Notes: generated from the letters alone by a model not told the origin. Positions 1 through 49,146 are shown, numbered from the stretch's first letter. The stretch: DNA of 64,000 bases from a bacterium (GCA_017963805.1 JAGCTE010000044.1:5921-69920), one strand, 5' to 3'. Program-made: numbers and translations.

Positions 1-2871
1 TACACAGTCAAGGGAAGCTCCCCGAAATCTTTCTACGACAACCTTGAGGACACCATCCAGTTCATGAACGGCCGCTACGCCGCCATGAGTTACCCCCTGG
101 CTCCTTACGGCATCATCGACCGCTACAGAGTCGACCATGTTGAAATGATGAACGTGGCCAAGGATCCCACCCGCTTCGAAGGATGCGAGGATTACTACAC
201 TACGGTCAGCTACAGCGAAGGCGACGACTACGGCGGATACCTTGGCAACCCCTACGACTGGATCGGGCAGACCTTCCTTTGGAACGGGAACGGCGTCTTT
301 TCGACCATGGGGCACGGCGCGGTTTGCCACGAGACCGGCCACTCCTTCGGCTTCCCCGACACCTACCGCTTCAACATGCCGGCCGCCAACAACAAAGTCT
401 TCGGAGAAGCCTACACTTGCAACTGGGCCGATCCCAAAGGCAAGGAAGACATCATGCGCTACTGCTACAACGGCACCAGGGACGTCTTCACGGAGCTGGA
501 ATGTGCGACCATCAACCTGAAGGCCGGCTCCCAGCGCCGTTATCCCCCGGAGATGCACAACGGCGTGAAAGGCTGGATGTTCGCCTGCCTTCCCACCAAC
601 ATCTGCATAAAAGCCTACGGCGAAAACGGCCACGAGCTCTGTCTGGCCGAAGTCCTCGTCTACCGCGGGACCGGCAGCAGCTACGAGCTCGCTTTCGGCA
701 ACACCAGCCCGAGCTACACCTTGACATATGATCAGGGCGCCAAATTCAAACCGAATTACAGCTACGACAACAACAATCTTTACTACAACAGCTTCATCTT
801 CAAGCTGCCCGGCGATGACACATCGAACTACAAGATCATCGACAGCCTGAGATTGAACTACGAATACCTGAAAGGCCAGAAAGACGTCTGCTTCTTCTCC
901 TTCACGAACGCGAATTACAAGGCCGCCGAGCCGACTTCCATCGTGATAGGAGACGGCAGCGGCTCCACTTTCACCCTGAAGAACGAACTGCATTTATCTT
1001 ATCCCGCCAACGCCCAAAAGATCCGCTGGGCCTACAACGAAGCCGGCTTAAACGACGCCGAGTGGCTGGACATCTCCGAAGACATGGAAATGATCTTCAC
1101 GAAAAACGGCCGCCTTTCCATCTATTTCCAAACGCTTTCCTATGACTGCGTGCTTTCCGACGTTTACGTAAGGGAAATAACCGTTACGACCGACTGGGAC
1201 ATGGGATTGGCCTGGCTTGAGCGCACGCCGAAATACGGCATCGGCAAATACGACATCGGCAGCACCTACCGTCCGAAGCCGGGCGACAGGCTTACCTGGA
1301 CCGCCAACATCTACTGCAACACTTCGCTGACGAACGATCCCATCGACGTGGTCGTCGACTGGTACGTCAACACGAAAAAGGAAGCATCGCACACCAACAG
1401 CTTCAGGGTCGTCCGCGACCTTTACCAGGACGACTTCCATTGGACCATGCCGGACACTTACGTCTACGATTTCACCAAGCCGCTTACCAACATCGTAAGA
1501 GCCGTCATCAGCTACCCCGAGGGATACGTCGACAACAACGTCAGCAACAACGTGCTGGACGTCTATATGGACGCCCTCAGTTTCGGCGTGACCGTCGTCA
1601 ACTCCACCTTCGACAAGTACACCAAGTCTTCCAAAAAGTCGTTCTACGACCACATGAACGACACTATCAACTACATGAACGCCCAGTACGCCAGGGCCAA
1701 GTCGGTGCTGGCGCCCTACGGCATCATAGACCGCTACCGGGTAGGGTATCTGAAACGCCAGGATTCGGAGTACTTCCCTCTCAACCCGGCTGACAGCACC
1801 AACTGCACCACCCAGCTCGTCTTCAACGAGGGCGGCTCGATGGGCGCCTTCTTCAACGCCCCCTACTACTGGATCGGACAAACCTTCGCCTCCGGCATCT
1901 TCGACATGGCCGGGCACGGCGCGCTCTGCCACGAATCGGGGCACTCGCTGCAGCTGCCCGACACCTACCGTTTCGATCTTTCGGAAGAGAACAACAAGGT
2001 CAACGGCAAGGCCTGGGGCTGCAAATGGATGGATCCAGAAGGCATGCAGGACATCATGCGCTTCTGCTACGACGGCTGGGGCGACATCTTCTGCGGCGTA
2101 GGCCCGGCCGCCGCCAACCTCCAGGCCGGCGTTTACCGCCGCACGCCTCCCGAGATCTACTCCAATGAATTCTGCTATTCAGTCGGCTGGATGTTCCAGT
2201 ATCTACCAACCAGCATCGTCGTGAGAGTCCACCATACGGACGGCCGCGAGCTCGACCAGCTGCCCATCCAGATCTACCGCGGCGGCGGCGAGGGCTACTA
2301 CATGCAGTTCCCCGATTCCCACTACGAATGGCGGAAGATCTATTCGAAGGGCGGCATCCGCTTCGAGCCCAACTGCCGCTACGATAACGCGAGGATCTTC
2401 GAGAACTGCTTCATGATAAGTTTGCGCTGCACCGGAACTCCCTTCGACATCCTTGACGTTCTGCGCCTCAACCACCTCTGCATGCTGCAGGGCAGCACCA
2501 ACACTGTCGTCTTTTCCTACACCAACGATTTCAAGGCCGCCGAGATCACCAGCCTGAAGCTCAACGACGGCGCTTCCGAGACCTTGTCGAGAGACGTTAC
2601 CTTAACTCTCGCCACCGACAACGCCATTAGGAAAGCAAGATGGGCCTATTCGGAGGAGGAGCTTGAGGAGACGGAATGGGAAGAAAGCTTCACCGCCAAA
2701 ACCATAACGCTCCCGGAAGAGGAAAAGAAATACACCGTCTACGCGCAAGTTTTGTCAAGAGACTTTGTCCCCTCTTACACTAAGAGCGCAGAAATAACCC
2801 TCGTCCCGGAACCGGGTTTAATATTCGCGCTTTGGGTACTAGCTGCCTTCGGGCTGCGAAAACGCTTTTAA
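1..2871 (+). CDS. PEP-CTERM-anchored zinc metalloprotease with tandem catalytic repeats (metzincin/M6-like), 5'-truncated by the window edge
   Basis: Frame is open from base 1 (YTVKGSSPKSFYDNLEDTIQFM...). Two HExGHxxxxPDTY motifs (HETGHSFGFPDTY, HESGHSLQLPDTY), each followed by a DIM Met-turn-like motif. C-terminus VPEPG + hydrophobic stretch + RKRF. Confidence 0.8.
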   Translation, partial: YTVKGSSPKSFYDNLEDTIQFMNGRYAAMSYPLAPYGIIDRYRVDHVEMMNVAKDPTRFEGCEDYYTTVSYSEGDDYGGYLGNPYDWIGQTFLWNGNGVFSTMGHGAVCHETGHSFGFPDTYRFNMPAANNKVFGEAYTCNWADPKGKEDIMRYCYNGTRDVFTELECATINLKAGSQRRYPPEMHNGVKGWMFACLPTNICIKAYGENGHELCLAEVLVYRGTGSSYELAFGNTSPSYTLTYDQGAKFKPNYSYDNNNLYYNSFIFKLPGDDTSNYKIIDSLRLNYEYLKGQKDVCFFSFTNANYKAAEPTSIVIGDGSGSTFTLKNELHLSYPANAQKIRWAYNEAGLNDAEWLDISEDMEMIFTKNGRLSIYFQTLSYDCVLSDVYVREITVTTDWDMGLAWLERTPKYGIGKYDIGSTYRPKPGDRLTWTANIYCNTSLTNDPIDVVVDWYVNTKKEASHTNSFRVVRDLYQDDFHWTMPDTYVYDFTKPLTNIVRAVISYPEGYVDNNVSNNVLDVYMDALSFGVTVVNSTFDKYTKSSKKSFYDHMNDTINYMNAQYARAKSVLAPYGIIDRYRVGYLKRQDSEYFPLNPADSTNCTTQLVFNEGGSMGAFFNAPYYWIGQTFASGIFDMAGHGALCHESGHSLQLPDTYRFDLSEENNKVNGKAWGCKWMDPEGMQDIMRFCYDGWGDIFCGVGPAAANLQAGVYRRTPPEIYSNEFCYSVGWMFQYLPTSIVVRVHHTDGRELDQLPIQIYRGGGEGYYMQFPDSHYEWRKIYSKGGIRFEPNCRYDNARIFENCFMISLRCTGTPFDILDVLRLNHLCMLQGSTNTVVFSYTNDFKAAEITSLKLNDGASETLSRDVTLTLATDNAIRKARWAYSEEELEETEWEESFTAKTITLPEEEKKYTVYAQVLSRDFVPSYTKSAEITLVPEPGLIFALWVLAAFGLRKRF
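97..2790 (+). repeat. Intragenic tandem duplication, unit about 1611 bp (537 aa)
   Basis: LAPYGIIDRYRV is encoded at about 97 and 1708. WIGQTF, GHGAxCHExGH, DIMRxCY, GWMF, LRLN, KAAE and RWAY recur in the same order. Confidence 0.85.
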
Positions 2872-3787: not shown

Positions 3788-4786
3788 TCAGGGGATCTCC
3801 AGGTAACGTATATCGGCCCTGTTCCTCAGGAAGAGCAGCCATTTGCCGCGGTTCTCGTCCAGCACCTGTTTTATGAGGTACTCCATCAAAACCACCCGCG
3901 ATTCCTCGAAAGAATTGGTATAGGCCGGCGCTTTTCTGGTGACGTAAAGGAGATGCGCGCCGAGAGGAGAGACTACTACGCCGCTCGTGTTGCTTATGGC
4001 CAAAGCGAAAGCGGCGTCGTGGATGACTTTGGGAACGGAGTTGGTGTCCCCCTTCCTCAGTTCGCCCACCATGCCGTCGTGCTGGGATGAGCGGCACTCG
4101 GAATACTCCCTGGCCGCCTTGGCGAAGGTAATGTACTTGTGGTCTATCTGGTCTTTGATGTAATTGAGGTATTCGTCGGCGTAAACTTCCTTGGAACCGT
4201 CAGGAAGGAACCTCTTGTCGAGGGAGACCTGGATATGCGAGAGCCAGAGGCGCTCGGGCAGGATCATGTGATCTTTCAAGAGCTCGTAGGTCTCCCTCAG
4301 CTGCTCCTCCGTGGGAGGGTTTAGATGCATGTCCCTTGTGAAGACCTTAAGGGCTTCAAGATCGGCCTTGACGTCCGCTTCCAATTCCTCTAACGTCACG
4401 TATCCCCTTTCCTGGAGATAGTTGATGAAATTGTCGGAGCCGCCCAGGTCGTCGATCATTTTCGAGATGTGGGCTTTGATCTCCTCGTCGCTGATGGTGG
4501 CAGGAGTTTCCTTGATCCTCTGCTTGACGAGTTCCTCGTTGATCATCTGCTCGAGCTTCTGGCCGCGCATTTTCTTCAAAAGCTCATAGGTCACGGGAGG
4601 ATTGTGCTTCTCGTATTCCTCGCCCCAGTTTGAGATGTAGAGTTCCAGCGTCTCGGACATAAGGGGAACTCCGTTGACCGTCGCTATGACGCGGTTGGTC
4701 AGCGCCGTTTCACGGTCGGCGGGCGTTTCCGGAATGTCGCAGCCCAGAAGGAAGAGCGCGAAAAGCAACGGAATATACTTCACCAT
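3788..4786 (-). CDS. PpiC/parvulin-type peptidyl-prolyl isomerase lipoprotein (SurA/PrsA/EpsD-like)
   Basis: Lipobox LLGC. VIATVNG SurA-type N-terminus. SHIQV, FAKAAREYSE, GVVVSPLGAHLL rotamase motifs. GAGGAGG RBS-like run upstream. Confidence 0.85.
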   Translation of the reverse strand: MVKYIPLLFALFLLGCDIPETPADRETALTNRVIATVNGVPLMSETLELYISNWGEEYEKHNPPVTYELLKKMRGQKLEQMINEELVKQRIKETPATISDEEIKAHISKMIDDLGGSDNFINYLQERGYVTLEELEADVKADLEALKVFTRDMHLNPPTEEQLRETYELLKDHMILPERLWLSHIQVSLDKRFLPDGSKEVYADEYLNYIKDQIDHKYITFAKAAREYSECRSSQHDGMVGELRKGDTNSVPKVIHDAAFALAISNTSGVVVSPLGAHLLYVTRKAPAYTNSFEESRVVLMEYLIKQVLDENRGKWLLFLRNRADIRYLEIP

Positions 4787-4968
4787 TCCTCCTCCTCGCC
4801 GCGGATCTTTTTTGGACGCGGCCTGGGGTCTGGTTTGGCGAAGCGCTCAAGGTCTTCTTTTCTCTTTTTCTCCCTGCGCTCGCTTTTGCAGGCGTGGTAG
4901 CGGCTGCGGCGGCGGGAATGGCGGAAGACTTCCACCTCTTCTGTTTTGACGTCTTCAGGCAAAATCAA
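4780..4968 (-). CDS. Small, highly charged hypothetical protein (about 60 aa)
   Basis: Fills the gap between two genes exactly and overlaps both neighbours. GAGGA lies upstream of TTG starts at 4968/4962. No recognisable family. Confidence 0.45.
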   Translation of the reverse strand: MILPEDVKTEEVEVFRHSRRRSRYHACKSERREKKRKEDLERFAKPDPRPRPKKIRGEEEEW

Positions 4969-6080
4969 TCCTCTGTGAACTGGCGTTTCAGCTGCTCCAT
5001 CTCGCGCTTTTCCCTGTTGGGGTCGGAGACGAGGTTAAGGAAGGTCTTGATCTTTTTCTGCTTCGGCTTGACGGTCACCATGGTGCGCTGGGATCTGAGG
5101 CGCTTGTCGCCGTGCAAGGCTTCCAAATAATAGACGCCGGGCTGCACGTGCTTGAAGATATAGAAGCCTTCCTTACTGTAGGTGTCGGCTTCCATATGGA
5201 TGAGCATGCCGTTGGATCTGGCGTCCCTCAATATAACCCTGGCGTCCAGGTGGCGCAAAGGATTGCCGTCCATGAGAACGTAGCCGTAGAGGTCGCGCCG
5301 GTCGCGGTCAACGCTGATCCTCACGCCTTCGTTGGTCAAGGTGATCGGGAAGTAATAGAATCTTCCCTCGTTGATCCTTTCGTCGATGAAGCGCTTGCGG
5401 CGCTCCAAGACCATCGTGTAGCGGCCGGGCGTGATGTCTTTTATGCAGAAGAGGCCGTTGGTGACGACCAGGCCTCCGGCCTGGGCGCCCTCCTGGTTCA
5501 TGAGGCGCAGAAAGACGCCGCGCTGGGCGTCCTCGCCGTCCACGGTAAGCTTTCCGTAAACGGTCATCGGCATCACGAAGCGGATGTTGACGTCGTAGCG
5601 GTAGCCCGGCAGCAAGACCAGGTTCGTGAAGAAGAACTGGTTCTTGTAATGGGCGGTAAGCGTGTAGTAGTTGGAGGAAGTGATGTAGTAGGCGTAGGTG
5701 CCTTTCCTGGTCGTCAGCATCGACCTTAGGTCCTCGCTGTCCTCGGCGCGGAAGAAAAGCGTCTTTACGTTCGCCATCGGTTCTCCCTTATGGTTCACGA
5801 CTTTGCCGGTAAGCAGCCCGTTGCCGGGAAATTGTTCGCCCAAACTCTTGCCCTGCTTCGATTCGGTGTCGCCTATCATGCTGCTGATGAGCTGATCTAT
5901 CTCGCTGTCATTTGCGGAAGAAGGCTCTTTCGAAAAAGGATCGTCAAGCTGACTCAGCGTGTCCTCAATGAGCTTTAAGTCCATGCTGTCTTTCTTGACG
6001 CTGCTGACTTTGAATTCGGGATCCGCGGCGTCCGCCAGTACGAACCCGCTGAATAGGAAAAGAAAAAGTAGTTTTTTCAT
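4965..6080 (-). CDS. Secreted protein with repeated carboxypeptidase-regulatory-like (prealbumin-fold) domains
   Basis: Signal peptide MKKLLFLFLFSGFVLA. Repeats LTGKVVNHKGEPMANV, GLFCIKDITPGRYTM, GFYIFKHVQPGVYYLEA. Confidence 0.7.
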   Translation of the reverse strand: MKKLLFLFLFSGFVLADAADPEFKVSSVKKDSMDLKLIEDTLSQLDDPFSKEPSSANDSEIDQLISSMIGDTESKQGKSLGEQFPGNGLLTGKVVNHKGEPMANVKTLFFRAEDSEDLRSMLTTRKGTYAYYITSSNYYTLTAHYKNQFFFTNLVLLPGYRYDVNIRFVMPMTVYGKLTVDGEDAQRGVFLRLMNQEGAQAGGLVVTNGLFCIKDITPGRYTMVLERRKRFIDERINEGRFYYFPITLTNEGVRISVDRDRRDLYGYVLMDGNPLRHLDARVILRDARSNGMLIHMEADTYSKEGFYIFKHVQPGVYYLEALHGDKRLRSQRTMVTVKPKQKKIKTFLNLVSDPNREKREMEQLKRQFTED

Positions 6081-6084
6081 GATC

Positions 6085-8184
6085 TTATTTGGTTTTTCTG
6101 CCCAAAAGAAGGGCGATTAAAAGCGCTGACAAAAGGATCGAAGGCTCGGGCACAAGCTCGTCCGCGCCGGAAACGGTCAGGGCGAAAGCTTGGTTCGGGC
6201 GCATAAGGTTGCCGGCCCTGACTATCACCTCGATGTCTTCTCCCGGGGGCAGATCTTCAACGTGCACCTTCTCCGTGTTGTTCAAGGTGTCGGTGCCCGA
6301 TCTCAGGGAATTGGGGAGATAGGTGGTTTCGCCGACTGTGACCGTAAGATCCAGATCGTTGATCAGCGAGACCGCGGCCCCCACGCTGCCCGCGAGGTCA
6401 GTCCAGCAGAGAGTGACGTTTAAGGTGTTTGTTGTGTTGTTGGCGAATACAAACGACGCTTCGTCGCCGGTGTTTTTCAGGCTGCCCTCGAAAGGAAAGA
6501 GCTGCCCGGAACTGGGATTGATGCTCTCGAAAAGATTGACGTGCCCGAACCCGTTCACGCAGTTGGGAGTTCTTTTAGGTATTTCGCTATTGTTGCTGTA
6601 CTGACCGTTCCCCATCGATCTGCATCCGTTTATAAGCACGGACCTGACCAGTGCGGAGGTAGGCTTCTCAAAACCGTTTTCCTTAAGATACTGCATGATG
6701 TCGGCGCAGGCGCCGGCGGTAAGCGGCGTGGACATGGAGGTGCCGGACATGAAGGCGTAGTAGCTCACCCTTGTGCCGTTGTTCAGAGGATCGCAAAGCG
6801 ATTCGGTGGATTTGACCTGGGTGCCGGGGGCGCAGACGTCGGGCTTGATGCGGCCGTCCTTGGCGGGCCCCCTGCTGGAATTCATCATCATCCCCTGCTG
6901 AACGCCGTTGGCGGGGTAGGCAATTTTGTCTTCGTAGAAAATGCTGCCGGGCTGCGCGCCGTATAGGGCGTAAGTCGTGGCAACGTCCGGACGGTAGTTT
7001 TCGGAGGCGCCGACCGTGATGACGTTTTTCGAAACGGCCGCCGAACCCATGGTGCAGTTGTCCTCCGTTATTATGTCCTTGTTGTTGTTGCCGGCGGAGA
7101 AAAGCACCAGATAATCCGGATATTTCTTGCAGATCTGGTCCCAGGCGCGGGCGCTGGAGTTGTATTCCCCGTCGCCGCCGGTGCCGTAGGAGTTGCTCAT
7201 GATGCGGGCGCCCGCGGAATAAGCCAGCTTGACGTCCGTCTCGTCTGGCGCGGCGATCCCGTTGCCGGCTCCGCCGCAGCAGATGAAATAAATGTCGGCG
7301 TCCGGGGCCATGCCGCCCGCGCCGGAATCAATGGTTCCGTTGCCGAGGACCGATCCGGCCACGTGTGTGCCGTGCCCGTTAAGGTCGCTCCATTCGGTCC
7401 TCGCGGTATTGTAGCTGCAGACAACTCCGGTGATCTTTTTGCCTTTGAAATCGGGATGGATGGTGTCGGGGTCGCCGCTGTCGAAGCCGGTGTCGGCAAC
7501 GCAGACTGTCACTCCTTTTCCCGTGTATCCCATCGAATTGACAGGCGTGACGTTCATGAGCGCCGGCGTCTTGGCAACGTCGTTGTTTATCGTCCAGACG
7601 GGCTCCTCCTCAACGTTGACCACCGCGCTAAGACTTGAAAGCTTCGGCACAAGGCCGCTTTTGATCTCCGCCCGAACGAGAGACGCGGTCTCGCTCGCCA
7701 GCGCGCATTTTGAGCAGCCGTTCTCTTTCAAAAACTTCTCCACTTCCCCGTAGGCGGCGCTGGAAACAAGGATAATGAGCGCCGAGAAAGAGTCCTCTTT
7801 CGCCATGAGCGTTTCGCGGAAGGCGCCAGCCGTTTTGTATTCGGGAAGGTATTCCCCGGCATAGAGGATCTCAAAGCGCGCCTTAAGATCATCAAGCGCT
7901 TTTTCTGTGCACAGAACATGGTAGGCGTTGGGCGGGAAAAAGCCGACTATTTCAACGCCGAGTGACTCTACGGCCTCGATGTCGTCGCCGTCAAAATTTC
8001 GGGCGGGCTGGAGGATGTACTGGAATTTGCCCGAGGAAGTCGGGGCGCATTTCGTTATGGAGACAGCCGACAACGCGGCGGCTTCCGGATCGATGACGGT
8101 CTCCCTCAGCCTGATCGGGCCCGGGTCGGCGGGAACGGAGAGGGCGGCGGAACAAAGGAGAAGAATAAGGAACGTTTTTTTCAT
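6085..8184 (-). CDS. S8 subtilase (KP-43-like) with PEP-CTERM anchor, paralog 3
   Basis: Signal peptide. Triad motifs VADTG, HGTHVAG, SGTSMSTP; oxyanion SAGN; NDLDL C-terminal domain. Tail VPEPSILLSALLIALLLGRKTK. Confidence 0.92.
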   Translation of the reverse strand: MKKTFLILLLCSAALSVPADPGPIRLRETVIDPEAAALSAVSITKCAPTSSGKFQYILQPARNFDGDDIEAVESLGVEIVGFFPPNAYHVLCTEKALDDLKARFEILYAGEYLPEYKTAGAFRETLMAKEDSFSALIILVSSAAYGEVEKFLKENGCSKCALASETASLVRAEIKSGLVPKLSSLSAVVNVEEEPVWTINNDVAKTPALMNVTPVNSMGYTGKGVTVCVADTGFDSGDPDTIHPDFKGKKITGVVCSYNTARTEWSDLNGHGTHVAGSVLGNGTIDSGAGGMAPDADIYFICCGGAGNGIAAPDETDVKLAYSAGARIMSNSYGTGGDGEYNSSARAWDQICKKYPDYLVLFSAGNNNKDIITEDNCTMGSAAVSKNVITVGASENYRPDVATTYALYGAQPGSIFYEDKIAYPANGVQQGMMMNSSRGPAKDGRIKPDVCAPGTQVKSTESLCDPLNNGTRVSYYAFMSGTSMSTPLTAGACADIMQYLKENGFEKPTSALVRSVLINGCRSMGNGQYSNNSEIPKRTPNCVNGFGHVNLFESINPSSGQLFPFEGSLKNTGDEASFVFANNTTNTLNVTLCWTDLAGSVGAAVSLINDLDLTVTVGETTYLPNSLRSGTDTLNNTEKVHVEDLPPGEDIEVIVRAGNLMRPNQAFALTVSGADELVPEPSILLSALLIALLLGRKTK

Positions 8185-8188: not shown

Positions 8189-10276
8189 TTATTTTCTTTT
8201 TCTGCCCAAAAGCAGGGCGAATATAAGGGACGCGAAGAAAAGAGACGGTTCGGGTACGAACTCGTCCATGCCGGAAACGGCCAGGGCGAAGGCCTGGGGC
8301 CCTTTCATGATATTGGCGGCTTTAATTTTCACCTCGATGTTGTCGCCGGTCGGGAAAACATCCATGTATAGTTTTTCAACGTTGTTTATGCTGTCGGTGC
8401 CGCTTTCCAATCCGTTGGGAAGATAGGTGGTCTCGTCGACGGTGACGGTCATGTCAAGGTCGTTGACAAGCGCCTTCCTGGCCGATGTGCTTCCGACGGG
8501 GTCGTTCCAGCACAAGGTGAAGCTTCCGGAGTTGGCCCACCTCTTTTCGAAGGTGTAGGTGACTTCGTCGCCGGTGTTGTTCAAAGTGCCTTCAAAGAAG
8601 AAAAGCTCGCCGTCCGCGGGGTCGATGCTCTCGTTGATGTCAACATGACCGAAGCCGTTGACGCAGTTCGGGGTGACGTCGGGGATCTCCGTGGCGCTCC
8701 TGTACTGGCCGGTGCCCATCGATCTCGCGCCGTTTATAAGAACGGCTTTCACAAGCGCGGAGCTCGGTTTTTCCACGCCGCTCTCAAGAAGGAACTGCAG
8801 TATGTCGGCGCAGCCGCCGGCCGTCAGAGGCGTGGACATGGAGGTGCCTGACATGAAGGTGTAGTAACCGTCCATTTTTCGGGTGCCGTTGTTTTTCGCG
8901 TCGAAAACGGATTCCGTCGATTGGACCAAGGTTCCCGGGGCGCAGACGTCCGGTTTGGCGCGGCCGTCGGTGCAGGGCCCCCTGCTTGAGAACATCGCCA
9001 TGCCCTGGTTGCTGCCGTCGGCGGGATAAGCGATCTTGTCGCTGTAGAAGACCGTCCCCTGCGGAGCCATCTGAAGCTCACCGTATGTCTTGGAATCCTG
9101 GCGGTAGTTCTCGGAGGCGCCGACTGTCAGCACGTTCTTCGCCGACGCCGTGGCGCTGAGGGTGGAGTTGTTTACGGTGCTGATGTTTTCGTTGTCATTG
9201 CCGGCGGAGAAGAGGATCAGCATATCGGGGAATTTGTTGGCGATCCCGTCCCATTTTACGGAGTCGGAAACATAGGCTCCGGCGTTGTAATGGTTCCCCC
9301 AGCTGTTGCTCATGATGCGGGCGCCGGAGTCGTAGGCGCCTTTCACGTCGGCTTCGCTTGGCGGATACACGGATTGTCCCGCTCCCCCGATGGAGATGAA
9401 GTAAAGGGCGGCGTCCGGCGCCATGCCGGCGTTCTGGTAGGTGTAGCTTCCGGTGCCGCAGACGGAGCCGCAGACATGCGTGCCGTGGCCGTTCAGGTCT
9501 TTCCATTCTTCCCTGGGATTGGAGATGCCAACCACGCTCGTTATGTCTTTGTTTTGAAAATCTGGGTGGATGTCGTTAAGGTCGCCGCTGTCCAGCCCGG
9601 AGTCCGCGACGCAGACCTTTACTCCCCTTCCCGTGTAACCGTGACGGTTGGCCTCCTCGACGTTCATTAGAAAATCTTTCTTGGCGACGTCGTTCATAAG
9701 AACAGACTCTTTTTCCTCCTCAACGTTGACTACGGCGCTCAATTTCACAAGCTGCGAGACCTTTTCTTCCGTCACTTCGGCCCTGACCATCACAGGTTCT
9801 TCCAAAACTTTTTCGCATCCGGGAAGAAGAGCGGAAACTTCTTCGTACTCCGCCGCGGAAGTGAGGATTATGAGAGCTTTGAAAGCGCCTTTGCCTTTCG
9901 CCATGAAGGTCTTTGAGGATCCGGTCGTCTTGAATGACGAAGGATATTCGCCGCAATAGAGAAGCTCCGTTCGGGACTTCAAAAACTCCAGCTCCTTTTC
10001 TCCCGCCAGGATCTGGTAGGCGTTCGGCGGTATGATCCCGACGAAAACTACGCCCGCGCGTTCAGCCGTCTTCATCTCTTCGGTCGTGAAATTTTTGGCC
10101 GGTTGGATGACGTACTGGTATTTCCCGCAGGAAGTGGGAGCGCATTCTGGTTTGACATAGCTTTGCGTTTTCGGAGCCGAGGGGTCGATCACGTTTTCCC
10201 TAAGATAAATGAGACCGGGGTCGGCTATGGCGCCTAAAGAGGCGGCAAGAAGTGTGAGAAGAACGATTTTTTTCAT
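8189..10276 (-). CDS. S8 subtilase (KP-43-like) with PEP-CTERM anchor, paralog 2
   Basis: VADSG, HGTHVCG, SAGN, SGTSMSTP. Tail VPEPSLFFASLIFALLLGRKRK. Confidence 0.92.
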   Translation of the reverse strand: MKKIVLLTLLAASLGAIADPGLIYLRENVIDPSAPKTQSYVKPECAPTSCGKYQYVIQPAKNFTTEEMKTAERAGVVFVGIIPPNAYQILAGEKELEFLKSRTELLYCGEYPSSFKTTGSSKTFMAKGKGAFKALIILTSAAEYEEVSALLPGCEKVLEEPVMVRAEVTEEKVSQLVKLSAVVNVEEEKESVLMNDVAKKDFLMNVEEANRHGYTGRGVKVCVADSGLDSGDLNDIHPDFQNKDITSVVGISNPREEWKDLNGHGTHVCGSVCGTGSYTYQNAGMAPDAALYFISIGGAGQSVYPPSEADVKGAYDSGARIMSNSWGNHYNAGAYVSDSVKWDGIANKFPDMLILFSAGNDNENISTVNNSTLSATASAKNVLTVGASENYRQDSKTYGELQMAPQGTVFYSDKIAYPADGSNQGMAMFSSRGPCTDGRAKPDVCAPGTLVQSTESVFDAKNNGTRKMDGYYTFMSGTSMSTPLTAGGCADILQFLLESGVEKPSSALVKAVLINGARSMGTGQYRSATEIPDVTPNCVNGFGHVDINESIDPADGELFFFEGTLNNTGDEVTYTFEKRWANSGSFTLCWNDPVGSTSARKALVNDLDMTVTVDETTYLPNGLESGTDSINNVEKLYMDVFPTGDNIEVKIKAANIMKGPQAFALAVSGMDEFVPEPSLFFASLIFALLLGRKRK

Positions 10277-12382: not shown

Positions 12383-12387
12383 GTCTG

Positions 12388-22746: not shown

Positions 22747-22931
22747 AAAACAACAAAAATCAAAACAGGAACGGAATGTGTGCGGTGATTGGCGAACTGC
22801 TTCTCCCTTCCCCCTACACGAACACACACACCAAAAAGGGCAGCGTCTCTACATCCGCATTCCGGTTGCGGTCCGGGGATATTTTGTCTTCGGGCCGCAA
22901 CATCCTGTCAATAAGCGAGGTCAAAGGATAA
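22743..22931 (+). CDS. Putative 62-aa ORF and/or structured RNA between murF and mraY
   Basis: ATG overlaps the murF stop (ATGA) and the stop ends 1 nt before the mraY ATG. MKNNKNQNRNGMCAVIGELLLP...SEVKG. No family recognised. Confidence 0.4.
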   Translation: MKNNKNQNRNGMCAVIGELLLPSPYTNTHTKKGSVSTSAFRLRSGDILSSGRNILSISEVKG

Positions 22932-22932
22932 T

Positions 22933-24024: not shown

Positions 24025-24037
24025 GGTATAGGTATCC

Positions 24038-25426: not shown

Positions 25427-25450
25427 CCAACCTTGAAAGAGAGGAACCAT

Positions 25451-26473: not shown

Positions 26474-26488
26474 TCATTGACCGCGTAA

Positions 26489-30155: not shown

Positions 30156-30163
30156 GGAGTCTT

Positions 30164-30967: not shown

Positions 30968-30970
30968 CCT

Positions 30971-42119: not shown

Positions 42120-43607
42120 ATGAAGATCTCCATAAGCTATCCTCCCCTTCCGAGCGAGCTGGGAGTTCCGCTCCTTGGTCAGAACCGCCAGTTCCAGTAC
42201 TTCCACAAGCCGACCTACATCTACCCGATGGTGCCGGCTTACGCCGCTTCGCTCCTTAAGGAAAACGGCCACGAAGTATTTTGGCAGGACGGCATAGCGG
42301 AGAAAAAAACTTACGACGAATGGGAAAAGGAGCTGCTTGGCGTTTCCCCCGACATCGTCGTCTTCGAGAGCAAGTGTCCGGTAATAGAGAAGCACTGGAA
42401 ACTTATAGACAGCCTTAAGGAAAAACTTCCGGAAACGCTTTTCGTTTTGGTCGGCGACCACGTCACGGCAAGGCCATTGGAATCTTTTTCCAATTCCAAG
42501 GTCGACATCGTCATAACTGGCGGCGACTACGATTTCCTGCTTCTCGACCTAGCAAATCATCTGGAAAAAGGAACGCCGCTCCCTCCCGGCTTCTACGTAA
42601 GCGAAATCGCGAAGCGCGTAAAAGTTGAGAACGCGGAAGAAAAGGACGGCGTTTTCTTCACCGGGAAAGCGCTTCTTGATCACGACGTCAACTCCCTCCC
42701 CTTCATCGACAGGGATCTGACCAAATGGCGTCTCTACGCCTACGAGAACGGCAACTTCAAATACCCGCCGGGGACCTACACTTATTCCGGCCGCGACTGC
42801 TGGTGGGGAAAGTGCACCTTCTGCGTCTGGGACAACACCATTAATCCCTGCGGCAGCTACCGCAGCTTTTCTCCCGAGCGGCTTTTCGCCGAAGTGAAGC
42901 ATATAATCGACAATTATCACGTGAAAGAGATCTTCGACGACGCCGGCAGCATGTTCGCCGGGGACAGGATGAAGAAATTCTGCCGCCTTTTGATCGAGAG
43001 CGGCTACAATAAGAAGGCGGTCTTCGGCTGCAACATGCGCTTCGACGGCATGGACAAAGAAGGCTACGACCTTATGAAGAAAGCCAATTTCCGCTTCGTC
43101 CTCTTCGGCCTCGAATCCGGCAACCAGAAGACCCTGGACCGCATAAATAAGGGCATCACTCTCGAGCAGATCGAAAAGGGCGCCAAGCTCTGCAAAGAAG
43201 CCGGGCTCCAGCCGCACGTGACCTTGATGCTCGGCTACCCTTGGGAGACTCTGGAGGATGCCAAAAGGACCGTCGATTTCGCGAAACGGCTTTTCAAGCT
43301 CGGCTACATCGACACGTTGCAAGCGACCGTCTGCATTCCCTATCCCGGAACGCCTCTTTACAAAGAATGCGAGGAAAACGGATGGCTGCTGACGAAAAAT
43401 TATTCCGACTACGATATGCGCGGCATGGTCATGAAGTCCCCCATCAGCGAAAAAGAGCTCATGGATCTCACGCGCCAGATATACCGCTCTTTTATGAGCC
43501 CCTCCTTCATCTGGCGCAAAATTATCGGGATCCGCTCGTTTTCCGACATAAAATTCCTCTTTACGGCCAGCCTTAGGGTTCTGGGACATCTTACTGATTT
43601 CAGCTAA
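42120..43607 (+). CDS. Cobalamin-binding radical SAM protein
   Basis: CWWGKCTFC (CxxxCxxC), N-terminal B12-binding-like region, FGLESGNQ, GYPWET, PYPGTPLY. Confidence 0.9.
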   Translation: MKISISYPPLPSELGVPLLGQNRQFQYFHKPTYIYPMVPAYAASLLKENGHEVFWQDGIAEKKTYDEWEKELLGVSPDIVVFESKCPVIEKHWKLIDSLKEKLPETLFVLVGDHVTARPLESFSNSKVDIVITGGDYDFLLLDLANHLEKGTPLPPGFYVSEIAKRVKVENAEEKDGVFFTGKALLDHDVNSLPFIDRDLTKWRLYAYENGNFKYPPGTYTYSGRDCWWGKCTFCVWDNTINPCGSYRSFSPERLFAEVKHIIDNYHVKEIFDDAGSMFAGDRMKKFCRLLIESGYNKKAVFGCNMRFDGMDKEGYDLMKKANFRFVLFGLESGNQKTLDRINKGITLEQIEKGAKLCKEAGLQPHVTLMLGYPWETLEDAKRTVDFAKRLFKLGYIDTLQATVCIPYPGTPLYKECEENGWLLTKNYSDYDMRGMVMKSPISEKELMDLTRQIYRSFMSPSFIWRKIIGIRSFSDIKFLFTASLRVLGHLTDFS

Positions 43608-43721: not shown

Positions 43722-46391
43722 ATGAAATCAGTGCTCAAAACAATTCTCTTTCTGGGCCTTAGCGCCCTCTCAGTTCGCTCAGAACTTCCCTCCAATCTCG
43801 TCTCAGCCAACTGGATCGAATCCGAAGGCGGCTACATCAACACCGGCATCAACCAGTACGGCTCTTCCCTTTCCGAACTTGACTGCGTTTTAGAGTTCAC
43901 CACCCTCAATTACCCCAAGCGGCGCCTTATGGGTTTCAACGGCGCCGGCCCGAAGAACTACGTGGGCATCAGCCCCGACAACAAGTTCGACCTTTGGAAC
44001 GTTTCCCAAATGGAAGCCGAGTCGAACGTCAAATACCACTTGCATCTTACACAGGACCCCGTGGTCGCCGTGCTTGACATATATAGTTATAACGAAAATC
44101 CCGAGAACGAAGTCCTTCTGGAGAAGATGGTCTGCAACGCCAACGGCATCAACAATAGCGAATGCCAGCTCTTCATCATCGCCTCCAATCCGAACTACCA
44201 CTGCTACGACGTCAGGCTCTACAACTTCAAGATCCTTCTTGACGGCGAGCTGAAAAGGGATTTCTCCCCTGTCATGGACATAGAATCCCACAAGGCCGGA
44301 ATGTATGACAGCGTGAGCGGCGAGACCTTTTACGCCAGCAACGAAGGCAAACTGATCTGCGACGCCCTTGATTACTCTTACGGTGAAGGCGAAAGCAAGG
44401 TCTGCCCTGACGGCGACACCCTCTACCTCCCCTCCTACGCCGACTACTCCAACCTCGACGCTCTCCGCTTCCCCGCCGGCACCGTTCTTTCCGGCACCAC
44501 CGGCGAAAACCTGACCGTGGGCACGGACGCCCTTGACATGCGCGTGCTTTTCGGCGACGACATGGAAGCCGGCGAAAGGTATCCTGTGACTGTCAGCTTC
44601 CCCTCCGGCGCCGCGACGAGCTTCTACCTCGCCAAGAGCGCCAACATCCCCGCCCTCTTCGTCAACCTCGACGCCACAAGCGTTGAGATGATCAACAAGA
44701 GCAAGGCCAATTCCGCTTCCGGCGCGGCGCTGAAGATCGCCCCCGACGGCACCGCATCCCCGCTTCTCGAGGTCAAGAAGTTCGCGGGCCGCGGCAACAC
44801 GAGCTGGACTTATTCCGGCGACAAGAAGCCTTACAAGATCAACCTGGCCGAGAAATACAATTTGATCGCTTCCAAAAGCCCCAACAAAAAATTCGCCCTG
44901 CTCTCGCTTAACCTGCAGGACAGAAAAGACCGCAGCTGCCTCAAGGAATTCGTCGCCCACGAGCTGGCTGAGTCTATGGACATGAGCTTTGTCCCTGGCA
45001 TGGAATTCGTCGACCTCTACGTCAACGGTTCCTACCGCGGCATCTATGTCATCAAGGAACGCATAACCATCGGGTCCGACAGGATCAACATCCACGAACC
45101 GAAATTCCTCTATGAGGACGAAACTTCCACCACGAGAGTGGTGCAGCAAAGCGGCATCAAGGGCGTTGACGGAGCCGAGGGCGACGAGGGCGATGAGGAG
45201 CCCTTCAAAGTCTCCAGCTGGAACGTTCCGGCAGCCACCGAGACCATCTTAAGCGAGAACGACGATGAAGACCCCGCTTTGAAAGCCGGCATCCAGGCTT
45301 ACCAGTACGCCACCGGCTCACAGCTCCAGGGCGGCAAGGACGGCGGCGTGATCATCGAAATGAACGTCTGCTATTCCGCCTACTTATATGACGAGCCCAG
45401 CTTTTTCATCACCAGGAGAGGCCAGATATTCAACCTGAAGACCTCCGAGTGCGGCACCAAGGAGCAAGTCCAGAGGATCGCGATCTTCGTGCAGGAAATG
45501 GAGGACGCCCTCTTCAGCGAGACCGGCTTCAACGCCAAGGGCAAACATTATTCGAAATACATCGATGTCGCCAGCATGGCCAAGCACGTCGCTCTGGACG
45601 GCTTCATGGCCAACTCCGACTTCTGCATCATCAGCACTTACTTCTACATCGACGCCAACCCCGCTACCGGCGAATATATCGGAAAGCTCAAGGCCGAGCC
45701 GGTTTGGGACTACGATTTCGCCCAGGTCAATTCCAGCCACATCTACGTCAACAGCGCCAGCAGGATGTGCTACGTTCCCCACTTCTTCAACAAGGCGGAC
45801 TTCGTCAAGGCCCTCTATGAGATCCAGAATGACGAGACCGGCTTCACTAAGAGGATCGCCGAACTGAACGGCGGCGAACTGGACGATCTGGCCGCTAAGC
45901 TTATGCCCACCTACAAACTGAATTTCCTCAGATGGGGCAGCGACTCCGTATTCGACAGCGAAGTCCTCAGGAACAGCATGAGGACCAGAGAGGCCAGCTG
46001 GAACAGCCTCTGGAAACCGGATACACAGCTCCTGGGCGCCTGGGTGGACGAAGCCCCCGCTCCCCAGTATTCCTTCTTCTCCTTCAACGCTTCCGAATCC
46101 GCTGACATTTCCGTCTTCAATTACGGCACCGCCGGCGAATACCAGTGGTACAAGCTTGATGAGGAAGACAACTCCCTGAAAGCCATCGAGGGCGAGACGG
46201 AAGCGACCATAGATCCCACCTATTACGGCAAAGGCGAATACGTCTGCGCCATCAGCGGCGTCAACCTGGAGCCCCAGGCCGGCGGTCAGAACGTGACGCT
46301 CTACACCGCTCCCTTTGTTTTCGGCGCTCCGGAGCCCGGAATGATCGGAATGCTCCTTGCCGCGACGGCTTTTTTGCTTCGCAGAAAGTGA
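43722..46391 (+). CDS. CotH-family kinase with N-terminal lectin/LamG-like domain and PEP-CTERM anchor, paralog 1
   Basis: Signal peptide MKSVLKTILFLGLSALSVRS. GRGNTSW, KKPYKINL, FVDLYVNGSYRGIY..KER, NSD, PVWDYD. Tail APEPGMIGMLLAATAFLLRRK. Confidence 0.85.
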   Translation: MKSVLKTILFLGLSALSVRSELPSNLVSANWIESEGGYINTGINQYGSSLSELDCVLEFTTLNYPKRRLMGFNGAGPKNYVGISPDNKFDLWNVSQMEAESNVKYHLHLTQDPVVAVLDIYSYNENPENEVLLEKMVCNANGINNSECQLFIIASNPNYHCYDVRLYNFKILLDGELKRDFSPVMDIESHKAGMYDSVSGETFYASNEGKLICDALDYSYGEGESKVCPDGDTLYLPSYADYSNLDALRFPAGTVLSGTTGENLTVGTDALDMRVLFGDDMEAGERYPVTVSFPSGAATSFYLAKSANIPALFVNLDATSVEMINKSKANSASGAALKIAPDGTASPLLEVKKFAGRGNTSWTYSGDKKPYKINLAEKYNLIASKSPNKKFALLSLNLQDRKDRSCLKEFVAHELAESMDMSFVPGMEFVDLYVNGSYRGIYVIKERITIGSDRINIHEPKFLYEDETSTTRVVQQSGIKGVDGAEGDEGDEEPFKVSSWNVPAATETILSENDDEDPALKAGIQAYQYATGSQLQGGKDGGVIIEMNVCYSAYLYDEPSFFITRRGQIFNLKTSECGTKEQVQRIAIFVQEMEDALFSETGFNAKGKHYSKYIDVASMAKHVALDGFMANSDFCIISTYFYIDANPATGEYIGKLKAEPVWDYDFAQVNSSHIYVNSASRMCYVPHFFNKADFVKALYEIQNDETGFTKRIAELNGGELDDLAAKLMPTYKLNFLRWGSDSVFDSEVLRNSMRTREASWNSLWKPDTQLLGAWVDEAPAPQYSFFSFNASESADISVFNYGTAGEYQWYKLDEEDNSLKAIEGETEATIDPTYYGKGEYVCAISGVNLEPQAGGQNVTLYTAPFVFGAPEPGMIGMLLAATAFLLRRK

Positions 46392-46406
46392 TCGCTCTGC
46401 AAAAAT

Positions 46407-46437
46407 GCCCCCGGCTCAAACCGGGGGCTTTTTGTTT
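46407..46437 (+). terminator. Rho-independent terminator
   Basis: GCCCCCGG-CTCAAA-CCGGGGGC followed by TTTTTGTTT, 15 nt after the stop codon. Confidence 0.88.
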
Positions 46438-46443
46438 GACAAT

Positions 46444-46472
46444 TTGATTTTTCCCCTTAAAAGAAATATAAT
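46444..46472 (+). promoter_or_regulatory. Sigma70-type promoter for CotH paralog 2
   Basis: TTGATT (46444-46449), 17-bp spacer, TATAAT (46467-46472); same hexamers as paralog 1. Confidence 0.65.
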
Positions 46473-46503
46473 TTTAGACAAGAGATATCGCCGTAAAAGC
46501 CGC

Positions 46504-49146
46504 ATGGAAACCCAAAAGATCATAATATCCGTCCTTTTCCTCGCCTGCTGCGCCCTTGGCGCCAGATGCGAGCTACCCAATGGCCTTGCTCCCGCAAACT
46601 GGATCGAGACCAAGGGCGGATACATCCCCACGGGCATAACCCAATCCGGCGCGACGACGGTCGAGCTTGACTGTCTTCTGGAAGTCACCTCTCTCTACTA
46701 TTCGAAAAGACGCCTGATGGGTTTTGACGGCGCCGGTCCCAAGAACTATTTCGGCGTGACCACCAACAATCATTTCGAGATCTGGAACCCCACCGTCCTT
46801 ACAGCCGAATTAGGCGTCAAATACCGCCTGCACATGACCCAGAACAAGACCACCACCCTGCTGGAAGTCTTCTCCGAGGCAGGCGCGCTCCTAGATTCCG
46901 TCACCGGCAACGCCAAGGGCATCAACAGCAGCGAATGCCAGATCTTCACCATCAACTCAAGCTCCGCCTACACTTGCTACGGAATTAGAGTCTACGATTT
47001 CAAGATCATAATAGACGGAGACGTCAAAAGGGACCTCGTCCCGGTCTTCGACTATACGGCGGGAAAGCCAGGCATGTACGACAGCATCAGCCAAACAACG
47101 CTCTACGCCTACGGCAGCGGCAAGCTTGACTGCGACGCCCTTGATTTTCACTACGGTTCCGGTGACACCAAGATATTGCTTGAAGAGGGAGCCATGTATT
47201 TCCCCTCCCACATCGGCTTCGAAGACCTCGGCGAATTTTCCTTCCCGGAGGGCACCGTTTTGAGAGGGACCGAAGGGGGAGCCAGCCTGACCGTGGGCGA
47301 AGACACTCTGGATATGCGGACCATTTTCGGCGCTGACATGCGGCCCGGGGAAAGGTATCCCCTTAGCGTGGAATTCACCTTCGGCCTGGTGACGAATTTC
47401 TATATCGCAAAAAGCGCAAACATTCCTTCGCTTTTCGTGAACCTTATAGACGCCGATCTGGCTTTCATACACAGGAACAAGAAAAACGAAGCCGCCGCCG
47501 TCGCCCTGAAGATCGAGCCTGACGGAACTTCCTCCGAGCTTCTCCCTGTCAAAAAGTTCGCCGGCCGCGGCAACGCCACCTGGACTTATTCCGGCGACAA
47601 GAAGCCCTACAAGATCAACCTGGAATCGAAATACGCCCTCATATCCTCCGCCCCCAAAAGCAAAAAATTCGCCCTGCTCTCCCTGAACCTTCAAAACAAC
47701 AAGGACCGCAGCGGGCTCAAGGAATACGCGGCCCACGAGCTGGGGGATGCCATGGGCATGGGCTTCAATCCTGACTCTGAATTTGTTGACCTTTACGTCA
47801 ACGGTTCGTACCGCGGTTTCTACATGATAAAAGAACGCGTGACCATCGATCCCGACAGGATCAACATCAACGAGCCGAAATACAGTTTTGAGGACGAGGA
47901 GTCCACCACAAGAGTCGTTCAGCGAAACGGCATCAAGGGCGTCAAAGGCGCCGCGGGCGATCCCGACGACGGCGAGCCCGTCTCAGCCTCCAGCTGGAAC
48001 GTCCCCTCCCCCACGGAGACGATCACGAGCGAGAACGACGATGATGATCCCGCGCTCAAGGCCGGGATCCAGGCTTACCAATATGCCACAGGTTCCCGCC
48101 TAAAAACGGATAAGGAAGGCGGCGCGGTCATCGAGATGAACGCCTGCTACAGTCAGTACATGCAGGATGAGCACGTCTTCTTCATCACCAGGCGCGGCCA
48201 GATCTTCACCCTGAAGATCCCCGAAGTCGCAACGAAGGAACAGGTCCGGAGGATCGCGATCTTCGTCCAGGAATTCGAAGACGCCCTCTTCGGGGAAAAA
48301 GGTTTCAACTCGCTTGGCAAACATTATTCCGAATATCTGGACGTAGAGATCATGGCCAAGCACGTGATGGTGGACGGCTTCATGTACAACTCGGATTTCT
48401 GCATCCTCTCCACCTTCTTCTACATCGACGCCGATCCCGTAAGCGGTGAATTAAGGGGCAAACTCATAGCCGAGCCCATCTGGGATTACGATTTCGCCCA
48501 GATCAATTCCAGCCATATCTACGCCTCCAATTCCAATCCCATGAACTATCTGCCGCAATTCTTTTCCAAGGCTGATTTCATAAAGGCCCTGTACGAATTG
48601 CAAACGGATCCTTATGGTTTCCAATCAAGAGTCGCGCGGTTGAATTCCAACGACCTTTCCGCTCTGGGCGACAAGCTCAAGGCCGCGCATCAATTGAATT
48701 ATTTCCGCTGGGGCAGCGATTCCCAATCAGACGTGGCGACCATCAAAAGCAGGATGAGCTCGAGAGCGGGAAACTGGAACAATATTTTCAACCCGAACCA
48801 AAAGCTTTTGGGCGCCTGGGTGGAACAGGCCCAAACAAGGTCCCGCGCTATAATAGGCCCGCTGACCGTGGAGACCTACGGCACGCCGATATCGTACCAA
48901 TGGTACAAGCAGGACGCTGAGAGCGGCGAATTGACTGAGCTTGAGGGCGAGACAGGCTCAACTCTTGATCAGGAACAGTACGGCAAGGGACAGTACGTCT
49001 GCGGCGTCTACGGAAAAAATCTGGAGCCTCAGGCGGGCGGAACGTACGTGACGCTTTACACCGCGCCTTTCGCCTACGGACTTCCGGAGCCAGGACTGCT
49101 CGCTACTCTTCTTGCTTCCGCGGCCTTTCTACTCCGCAGGAAGTGA
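46504..49146 (+). CDS. CotH-family kinase with N-terminal lectin/LamG-like domain and PEP-CTERM anchor, paralog 2
   Basis: Start moved to METQKIIISVLFLACCALGARC, downstream of the terminator and promoter. GRGNATW, KKPYKINL, YVNGSYRGFY, PIWDYD. Tail LPEPGLLATLLASAAFLLRRK. Confidence 0.85.
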   Translation: METQKIIISVLFLACCALGARCELPNGLAPANWIETKGGYIPTGITQSGATTVELDCLLEVTSLYYSKRRLMGFDGAGPKNYFGVTTNNHFEIWNPTVLTAELGVKYRLHMTQNKTTTLLEVFSEAGALLDSVTGNAKGINSSECQIFTINSSSAYTCYGIRVYDFKIIIDGDVKRDLVPVFDYTAGKPGMYDSISQTTLYAYGSGKLDCDALDFHYGSGDTKILLEEGAMYFPSHIGFEDLGEFSFPEGTVLRGTEGGASLTVGEDTLDMRTIFGADMRPGERYPLSVEFTFGLVTNFYIAKSANIPSLFVNLIDADLAFIHRNKKNEAAAVALKIEPDGTSSELLPVKKFAGRGNATWTYSGDKKPYKINLESKYALISSAPKSKKFALLSLNLQNNKDRSGLKEYAAHELGDAMGMGFNPDSEFVDLYVNGSYRGFYMIKERVTIDPDRININEPKYSFEDEESTTRVVQRNGIKGVKGAAGDPDDGEPVSASSWNVPSPTETITSENDDDDPALKAGIQAYQYATGSRLKTDKEGGAVIEMNACYSQYMQDEHVFFITRRGQIFTLKIPEVATKEQVRRIAIFVQEFEDALFGEKGFNSLGKHYSEYLDVEIMAKHVMVDGFMYNSDFCILSTFFYIDADPVSGELRGKLIAEPIWDYDFAQINSSHIYASNSNPMNYLPQFFSKADFIKALYELQTDPYGFQSRVARLNSNDLSALGDKLKAAHQLNYFRWGSDSQSDVATIKSRMSSRAGNWNNIFNPNQKLLGAWVEQAQTRSRAIIGPLTVETYGTPISYQWYKQDAESGELTELEGETGSTLDQEQYGKGQYVCGVYGKNLEPQAGGTYVTLYTAPFAYGLPEPGLLATLLASAAFLLRRK

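Follow-up and report, generated by a model that had tools for sequence, protein, structure and literature searches.

The closest described relatives of the system reported here are the PEP-CTERM sorting systems of PVC bacteria, namely Verrucomicrobium spinosum and Akkermansia muciniphila. Haft et al. (2006; PMC1569441) described the PEP-CTERM tail, linked it to EpsH and counted 65 PEP-CTERM proteins in V. spinosum; in their account of the cargo, enzyme homologues are rare and fewer than 10% of the proteins match Pfam. For A. muciniphila, Ottman et al. (2016; PMC4960237) report 23 PEP-CTERM proteins and one EpsH-like gene, with nine of the proteins found by mass spectrometry. As far as these two accounts describe them, both organisms have many tailed secreted proteins, bearing a signal peptide at the N-terminus and a C-terminal Pro-Glu-Pro (PEP), helix and basic cluster, and an exosortase outside an exopolysaccharide locus. 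The stretch of bacterial DNA analysed here is 64,000 nucleotides long (hereafter the window; G000:C16:5921-69920, from a genome of 2.05 Mb in 74 contigs, 93% complete). Six genes within its positions 1-49146 encode what their sequences indicate to be secreted enzymes with intact catalytic motifs, each with a PEP-CTERM tail: a metalloprotease, three subtilases and two CotH-family kinase-like proteins. It is highly probable that these six belong to a genome-wide set of about 71 cargo proteins served by one exosortase, and that they are not a self-contained local system. The case is of the same kind as known PEP-CTERM sorting, while it is denser (about 71 tails in merely 2.05 Mb), richer in enzymes, and equipped with an unclassified exosortase that is fused to an EpsI-like domain, about 230 residues lying between the two. 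Protease or kinase-like domains are found in about 19 of the 71 proteins (the window's five full genes included, and the metalloprotease by motif only), a contrast with the cargo as Haft et al. portray it that is partly one of date, Pfam having grown since.

The six genes are given below with their Pfam scores (cut-offs 21.8 bits for PF00082 and 23.8 bits for PF08757), their C-terminal tails and, for the tails, scores against a hidden Markov model (HMM) trained on 60 tails of this genome, none of them from the window's own contig, C16.

1-2871, plus strand: tandem-repeat zinc metalloprotease, 3' 956 codons, two HEXXH motifs, PEP-CTERM-type tail (21.6 bits), VPEPGLIFALWVLAAFGLRKRF
6085-8184, minus strand: subtilase S8a, PF00082 152.8 bits, tail (21.4 bits), VPEPSILLSALLIALLLGRKTK
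8189-10276, minus strand: subtilase S8b, PF00082 160.6 bits, tail (17.5 bits, no curated PEP-CTERM match), VPEPSLFFASLIFALLLGRKRK
10280-12391, minus strand: subtilase S8c, of the KP-43/SubHal type, PF00082 160.8 bits, tail (22.5 bits), VPEPGLFLFAFFVLALLKTKNK
43722-46391, plus strand: CotH-family kinase-like protein 1 (CotH-1), 889 aa, PF08757 63.8 bits, signal peptide, PEP tail, APEPGMIGMLLAATAFLLRRK
46504-49146, plus strand: CotH-family kinase-like protein 2 (CotH-2), 880 aa, PF08757 56.2 bits, tail (24.0 bits), LPEPGLLATLLASAAFLLRRK

The initial annotation, made from the sequence alone, had described six open reading frames (ORFs) whose ends consist of [VAL]PEP[GS], a hydrophobic helix and a basic tail, and had seen recognisable catalytic motifs in all of them. 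Both descriptions hold for all six, the motifs being two HEXXH in the metalloprotease, an Asp/His/Ser triad in each of the three subtilases, and NxD together with WDxD in both CotH proteins; its naming of the tails as PEP-CTERM-type is also supported. All six proteins open with Met and a Lys/Arg-rich segment followed by a hydrophobic run, which we take, as judged by eye and not with a predictor, to be a signal peptide. Across the 13-14 residues that follow PEP, the six tails have mean Kyte-Doolittle values of 2.03-2.66, and Arg or Lys fills three or four of each tail's last five positions.

The combination of motif, helix and basic end is highly specific in this genome. Among the 5804 ORFs of at least 80 aa collected from the whole genome for motif counts, PEP stands 13-24 residues before the C-terminus in 87, of which 67 satisfy the hydrophobic-plus-basic rule, while control tripeptides (EPP, PPE, PDP, PQP, PAP, PKP, AEA, PEA, AEP, GEG, PSP and PTP) yield 0-1 full tails each. 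Chance occurrence of the tails is ruled out by this comparison. The six window tails score 17.5-25.2 bits with the genome's own tail HMM, and among ORFs that lack PEP one reaches 15.8 bits, the rest scoring at most 10.2. Pro-Glu-Pro itself is invariant in all 55 aligned tails of the genome.

The tail occurs in about 71 ORFs genome-wide, of which 70 score at least 15.5 bits in a leave-contig-out HMM search and one borderline case was added by hand; a six-frame genome search, for which the model was built from 55 tails, finds 77 matches at E <=0.01. When the 66 tail ORFs that do not lie fully in the window were searched against Pfam (E 1e-4), 36 matched at least one family and 30 matched none. 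The families represented are S8 (7), CotH (3), reprolysin-like (3), BACON_2 (14), LTD (4), GLUG (3), PKD (3), Kelch (2), PQQ_2 (1) and beta-helix (1). The tail is present at 10 of the 12 S8 loci and in 5/5 CotH genes of the genome; in this lineage, subtilases and CotH proteins receive it by default. The untagged S8 sequences are an 875-aa subtilase at G000:C68:16808-19435 and a further S8 locus at G000:C41:976-1707.

A genome scan for an exosortase, which the initial annotation had called for, found one, a protein of 686 aa encoded at G000:C20:3351-5411. It scores 118.5 bits with PF09721 (cut-off 25.7; two candidates, one match in the search of its own genome) and 55.8 with the exosortase/archaeosortase signature TIGR04178 (cut-off 23). 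Arg158, Cys203, Asn245, Arg248 and His282 are invariant in eight aligned exosortase homologues, which include one from the genus, three from the order and three from the phylum. A Cys and an Arg are catalytic in the exosortase superfamily, and the family and signature scores, together with these conserved residues of Cys/Arg/His type, place the protein in the exosortase (EpsH) family. A second exosortase in the genome was considered and rejected, the PF09721 search having given a single match. The C-terminal EpsI-like region scores 31.5 bits, under its cut-off of 42.8. The gene, on a different contig from the window, sits among housekeeping genes, between pyrF and a panE-type reductase gene, and not among polysaccharide genes. 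The catalytic core extends to about residue 320 and the EpsI-like domain begins near residue 545; the approximately 230 residues that separate them are unassigned. Compared with exosortases of the phylum that stand alone, the protein carries a 13-residue insertion that is common to its order-level homologues.

This exosortase resembles XrtD, XrtW and XrtT, the best-scoring subtype models, in that one polypeptide carries an exosortase at its N-terminus and an EpsI-like domain at its C-terminus. However, its scores fall far short of theirs (121.6 against 400, 114.2 against 425 and 33.4 against 250, respectively), its 686 aa compare with model lengths of 472-494, and the motif of its cargo is plain PEP, not VPLPA. 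With the XrtA-type PEP-CTERM systems of exopolysaccharide (EPS) loci, which comprise EpsH, EpsI, PrsK/PrsR/PrsT and an EpsD isomerase, it shares the exosortase core, the EpsI-like domain and the PEP tails of the cargo. It differs from them in its XrtA score (98.2 against 208) and in its pyrF/panE flanks. The markers associated with those systems also set the two apart: in this 93% complete genome TIGR02925 (EpsD isomerase) and TIGR03097 (PEP-CTERM-type O-antigen-ligase-like protein) have 0 matches, and the five matches to PrsK (TIGR02916) are all under the cut-off and confined to the C-terminal kinase part.

Reasoning from known exosortases, the six proteins would be exported through the Sec pathway by their N-terminal signal peptides and held briefly in the inner membrane by the helix and basic cluster of the tail. 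The exosortase would then recognise Pro-Glu-Pro and cleave, and the mature enzyme would be released or attached at the cell surface.

The exosortase-EpsI fusion is found in 8/8 genomes of the genus and 9/9 of the order (3 of these 17 matches are partial), and the matches elsewhere in the phylum are exosortases of 280-290 aa, some with an adjoining separate EpsI-like ORF. Tail-model matches range from 43 to 83 per genome within the genus and from 17 to 105 within the order, and 13 further genomes of the phylum have 0-16 each; the model, trained on this genome, loses sensitivity with distance.

The subtilases S8a, S8b and S8c share one architecture, consisting of a signal peptide, a propeptide, a catalytic domain, a C-terminal beta domain and the PEP tail. 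Their Pfam scores, the Asp/His/Ser triad and an oxyanion Asn assign them to peptidase family S8, and D231, H271, S483 and the oxyanion residue N366 are invariant in all five aligned subtilase paralogues. Residues 203-674 of S8c align with the PDB entries 5fax (E 5e-59) and 1wmd (E 1e-58). The window subtilases thus resemble KP-43 and SubHal (1wmd, 5fax) in their catalytic and C-terminal beta-barrel domains and conserved triad, but add an N-terminal region of about 200 residues and the PEP tail, and lie in tandem, fast-diverging arrays. A cleaved C-terminal signal also keeps secreted proteases on the cell surface in the case of LPXTG/sortase subtilases and the C-terminal domain (CTD) proteases of type IX secretion. 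The likeness is one of analogy: signal, sorting enzyme and envelope are different there, and the tails are not homologous. The NCBIfam family of LPXTG-anchored serine peptidases gives weak matches to the catalytic part of the subtilases.

The metalloprotease gene begins upstream of the window, its full ORF being G000:C16:5144-8791. Translation probably starts at the third Met, M98, with a signal peptide after it. The HEXXH motifs stand at residues 369 and 903 of the ORF, one in each of two repeats of about 530 aa that are 43% identical to each other. Membership of family M6 (immune inhibitor A) is not supported, as PF05547 scores 21.7 against a cut-off of 22 and TIGR03296 45.7 against 110.8; the full ORF matches no Pfam family at E 1e-4, and it has no sequence match among solved structures. 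With only the two HEXXH motifs in hand, we therefore file it as an unassigned zinc metallopeptidase. Directly upstream lies an untagged paralogue (G000:C16:3913-5391), a 492-aa metalloprotease with a single repeat and a signal peptide but no PEP tail.

The two CotH proteins are 59% identical to each other, and the start of CotH-2 is placed at 46504, where a clear signal peptide follows, instead of at 46357 as in the automatic ORF listing. Both contain N631-x-D633 (as NSD) and W662-D663-x-D665 (as WDYD). A profile of 36 CotH-family sequences matches residues 52-353 of Bacillus cereus CotH (5jd9) at E 2.7e-17, and in both window proteins the NFD and WDYD of 5jd9 align on N631-S-D633 and W662-D663-Y-D665. 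The two catalytic Asp positions of 5jd9 are 23 residues apart, a spacing equal to that of D228 and D251 in Bacillus subtilis CotH, and the mapping onto B. subtilis numbering was made through this equal spacing and not by direct alignment. Substitution of D228 or D251 is reported in PMC7821199 to inactivate the kinase. The proteins are accordingly members of the CotH family (PF08757), with scores over the cut-off and with D633 and D663 equivalent to D228 and D251. The likeness to the Bacillus spore-coat kinase, then, lies in the profile alignment and the retention of both catalytic Asp positions. The differences are that the window proteins are predicted to be secreted and sorted by their tails in an outer-membrane-type envelope, and that they have about 340 more N-terminal and about 130 more C-terminal residues.

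The two CotH proteins could be binding or structural surface proteins that keep only the fold and are not kinases, a reading that we regard as possible, if somewhat unlikely. The Pfam matches are modest (63.8 and 56.2 bits, each in two stretches). A phmmer search of solved structures with CotH-1 alone returned 0 matches, as did a profile of five paralogues, and the alignment of a distant CotH homologue to solved structures is limited to the N-lobe. Two close homologues (P0011 and P0012) carry Asn for the first catalytic Asp, and ATP is scarce outside cells. On the other side, the Asp residues that align with the NFD and WDYD of B. cereus CotH are kept in both window proteins, at positions whose spacing matches that of the two B. 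subtilis residues required for activity (PMC7821199), and G356-R-G-N and K368 are also near-invariant. Extracellular phosphorylation by the window CotH proteins may be envisaged. A limited literature search found no paper linking CotH with PEP-CTERM. In the protein database, all 13 CotH homologues that are at least 49% identical and have a complete C-terminus keep the tail, as against 0/36 distant ones, and with this query the subfamily is found in 8/8 genomes of the genus and 0/22 others.

The tailed genes have the following neighbours, the first five of which form with S8a, S8b and S8c the minus-strand array at 2839-16001.

2839-3786, minus strand: GT2 glycosyltransferase, last gene of the array, PF00535 80.6 bits, 88% identical to its counterpart in the same position in UBA3054
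3788-4786, minus strand: SurA/PpiC-type peptidyl-prolyl isomerase lipoprotein (PpiC), PF00639 and SurA_N_3 matches
4965-6080, minus strand: secreted CarboxypepD_reg-like beta-sandwich protein (CPDreg), PF13620 33.4 bits
12388-14367, minus strand: secreted 659-aa protein without Pfam or NCBIfam match
14367-16001, minus strand: type I phosphodiesterase/nucleotide pyrophosphatase (NPP), first gene of the array, PF01663 127.3 bits, 92% identical in UBA3054
42120-43607, plus strand: B12-binding radical SAM protein, encoded immediately upstream of the CotH pair, PF04055 66.2 bits
46400-46436, plus strand: terminator-like GC-rich hairpin followed by a T run, read from the sequence, between the CotH genes
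55818-58358, minus strand: Wzy_C (O-antigen-ligase-like) protein, 846 aa

The hairpin suggests that CotH-1 and CotH-2 could be separate transcription units. A scan of 1-18200 for promoters and terminators gave counts that were not above those of shuffled sequences (10 against 6.3 and 31 against 25.8). For the 659-aa protein, a language-model search of an atlas gives a feature score of 0.97 to heparinase II/III and alginate-lyase clusters, and comparison with solved structures gives chance-level matches only; a heparinase II/III or alginate-lyase-like fold is offered as a lead only. A tblastn search of the genome (E 1e-5, at least 80 residues) found no paralogue of the PpiC, CPDreg, 659-aa or NPP protein.

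The whole array is kept on a contig of UBA3054 ("bacterium UBP3_UBA3054", placed by NCBI taxonomy among unclassified candidate phyla), in the order NPP, 659-aa protein, four to five S8 genes, CPDreg, PpiC and GT2, and the metalloprotease runs convergently. Identity there is 81-92% for the flanking genes and 44-67% for the subtilases, except the first (94/83%, split by a frame break). Likewise, the radical SAM gene stands upstream of CotH in all four genus loci with enough flank and is 87-97% identical, against 55-99% for CotH. Because the identities of the subtilases and CotH proteins fall below those of their flanks, we conclude that divergence and turnover are faster in the cargo genes than in the genes beside them. 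In two genomes of the genus CotH is 55-58% identical and the radical SAM protein 87-90% (L068 and L070-L074 compared), and copy number varies in the genus, with 3 against 4-5 subtilases and two CotH genes against one in two genomes. We infer that the subtilase array was inserted into a conserved envelope/degradative operon. CPDreg is unusually conserved, with 85-94% identity across the genus and 41-53% across the order, and it is adjacent to PpiC in 3/3 order-level loci examined, with no subtilases beside them, which suggests that CPDreg and PpiC may be a conserved envelope pair. In one order relative (L088, G015; 11508-13025), the ORF after PpiC ends in VPEP and a hydrophobic run, followed by a longer and less basic end.

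A number of observations weigh against the assignment of the six proteins to a genome-wide set of exosortase substrates. With regard to the tails, the 40-aa ends were compared with TIGR02595, a model 24 positions long with which scores hover near the cut-off of 16. Five of the six miss that cut-off, CotH-1 passing at 20.1 while the metalloprotease (15.3), CotH-2 (13.7) and S8a (10.0) fall below it and S8b and S8c are not among the matches listed; all six miss PF07589, the best scoring 16.9 against a cut-off of 20.7. None of the exosortase subtype HMMs (XrtA, XrtC, XrtD, XrtT, XrtV and XrtW) gives a score over its cut-off, and TIGR02602 scores 77.6 against 105.55. The local density of tail genes lies above the genome mean, six where 1.7 are expected per 49,146 bp (Poisson P = 0.008 when genes are counted singly). 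PpiC and GT2 run in the same direction as the subtilases at tight spacing, an arrangement kept in the genus, and they could have a local helper role. The distribution of Wzy_C, which with this query occurs in 17/17 genus and order genomes (with 4-6 matches in each order-level genome) and in none of 13 others in the phylum, is that of the exosortase fusion and would fit a functional link or, equally plainly, phylogeny; related genomes are not independent, and the distribution therefore cannot separate the two. Contigs from RNA libraries that lie on the operon are a weak hint of its expression, with no silent control alongside. Finally, cleavage, surface exposure and glycosylation of the six proteins are putative.

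The RNA-library contigs come from a sheep gut run, in which 18 of 30 bins of 1-16100 are covered at >=95% identity, and from three further runs that cover the third subtilase. Some parts of the operon have no such contig in four runs (for example 6982-8055 in X15), which is uninformative on expression.

The failure of the curated models would be expected if the tails were plain membrane anchors that hold the enzymes at the outer (periplasmic) face of the inner membrane and are not exosortase substrates; several tails score similarly low against other sorting models, for example MYXO-CTERM, and the exosortase fits no curated subtype. The initial annotation had made its PEP-CTERM label depend on the tails matching such an HMM, and formally five of the six fall short, as do most tails of the genome (among the other 66 tail ORFs, 24 pass TIGR02595, 13 are listed below the cut-off and 29 are missed), whereas the tail of CotH-1 passes. 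Since the curated models mostly fail, the PEP-CTERM assignment rests on the invariant PEP, the architecture of the tail and the co-occurrence of an exosortase. A plain anchor would not need the motif that is invariant in this genome and that outnumbers its controls 67 to 0-1. Moreover, the abundance of the tail tracks the exosortase fusion through genus and order, and PEP is kept at the same place in 13/13 close CotH homologues despite a varying helix sequence. Based on these results, we consider plain anchoring very unlikely and retain exosortase sorting as the explanation of the tails.

The local concentration of tail genes raises a further alternative, and it is the one that the initial annotation had put forward. 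It had taken 1-49146 as one dedicated system, in which the local PpiC, the GT2s, a GT-C protein and a ligase-like protein fold or glycosylate the six enzymes to make a coat that both cleaves and phosphorylates proteins. The packing of PpiC and GT2 in the subtilases' own array, in an order kept in UBA3054, the six tails in 49 kb and the confinement of Wzy_C to the order that has the exosortase fusion would all be in line with this. The tail genes of the genome, however, lie mostly in tandem paralogue arrays, 40 in number and with up to six genes each. Of the 485 sliding windows that fit on sufficiently long contigs, 21 contain at least six tail genes, and contig C28 holds ten in one 49 kb span. 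When arrays are taken as units, the probability of at least three in 49 kb is 0.07, and clustering beyond the tandem arrays is not significant. Within 1-49146 the arrays are separated by the dcw cluster (18149-33324), nucleoside-metabolism, tRNA-synthetase and other housekeeping genes. Because clustering by arrays is not significant and housekeeping genes lie between, we conclude that 1-49146 is an ordinary chromosomal stretch in which three cargo arrays happen to lie.

Of the proposed maturation genes, PpiC is not of the EpsD type, as the protein has no match to the EpsD isomerase model TIGR02925 (E 0.1); homologues of it occur in 27 genomes out of 31, among them the four in which no exosortase was matched (G024, G026, G027 and G030). 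The ligase-like protein has no TIGR03097 match, and both it and the GT-C gene lie outside the span 1-49146 to which they had been assigned as local machinery. With a span split by housekeeping genes, about 65 more tail genes elsewhere without these neighbours, the EPS-type markers absent or under their cut-offs, CPDreg and PpiC paired without adjacent subtilases in the order, PpiC present where no exosortase is matched and arrays clustered at P = 0.07, a dedicated system in 1-49146 is very unlikely.

Two further features of the window stand apart from the cargo. A phosphopentomutase-like gene (36080-37246, minus strand) is one frame of 389 codons with a single in-frame TAA at 36749-36751 (H-stop-E), and this break may reflect pseudogene formation, an assembly error or strain variation. 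At 60007-62894 on the plus strand, an ArnC-like GT2 gene and the GT-C/PMT_2 gene enclose two tandem genes for CstA-family transporters of 475 and 487 aa.

What the genome-wide set of exosortase cargo does for its bearer can be approached from where the DNA is found. Sequencing runs labelled gut or bovine gut metagenome account for 14 rows from six studies, each containing half or more of the words of the stretch, although 7 of the 14 rows (two studies) may be the source of the DNA itself. The genes neighbouring the cargo encode the NPP-type phosphodiesterase, GH35 and GH2 glycosidases, and the 659-aa protein with its lead to heparinase II/III and alginate lyases. Because of the gut labels, these degradative neighbours and the many BACON-domain proteins among the cargo, we suggest that the tagged enzymes are likely to be surface-held digestive and binding proteins of a degrader of glycans and proteins in the animal gut.

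The striking local pattern is thus the visible corner of a genome-wide sorting pathway, a point that bears on how such windows are read, and a small gut-associated genome gives about 71 of its genes to exosortase cargo. As the curated PEP-CTERM models recognise only 25 of the 71 tails, about one third, standard annotation will undercount the cargo in this lineage. The more interesting question is whether the tail-sorted CotH proteins, predicted from sequence, act as extracellular kinases. We speculate, at a low level of confidence, that in this uncultured, UBP3-related gut lineage the exosortase is the main route of enzyme display and that genus-restricted surface CotH kinases phosphorylate host, dietary or the bacterium's own proteins. 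If this were true, these surface CotH kinases would resemble the secretory-pathway kinases of animals and would be the first exosortase-sorted extracellular protein kinase, and, together with ten tethered subtilases, they would give this bacterium a surface that both cuts and phosphorylates proteins. Should the CotH proteins be active surface kinases, extracellular phosphorylation would become testable in a gut bacterium of the Gram-negative type.

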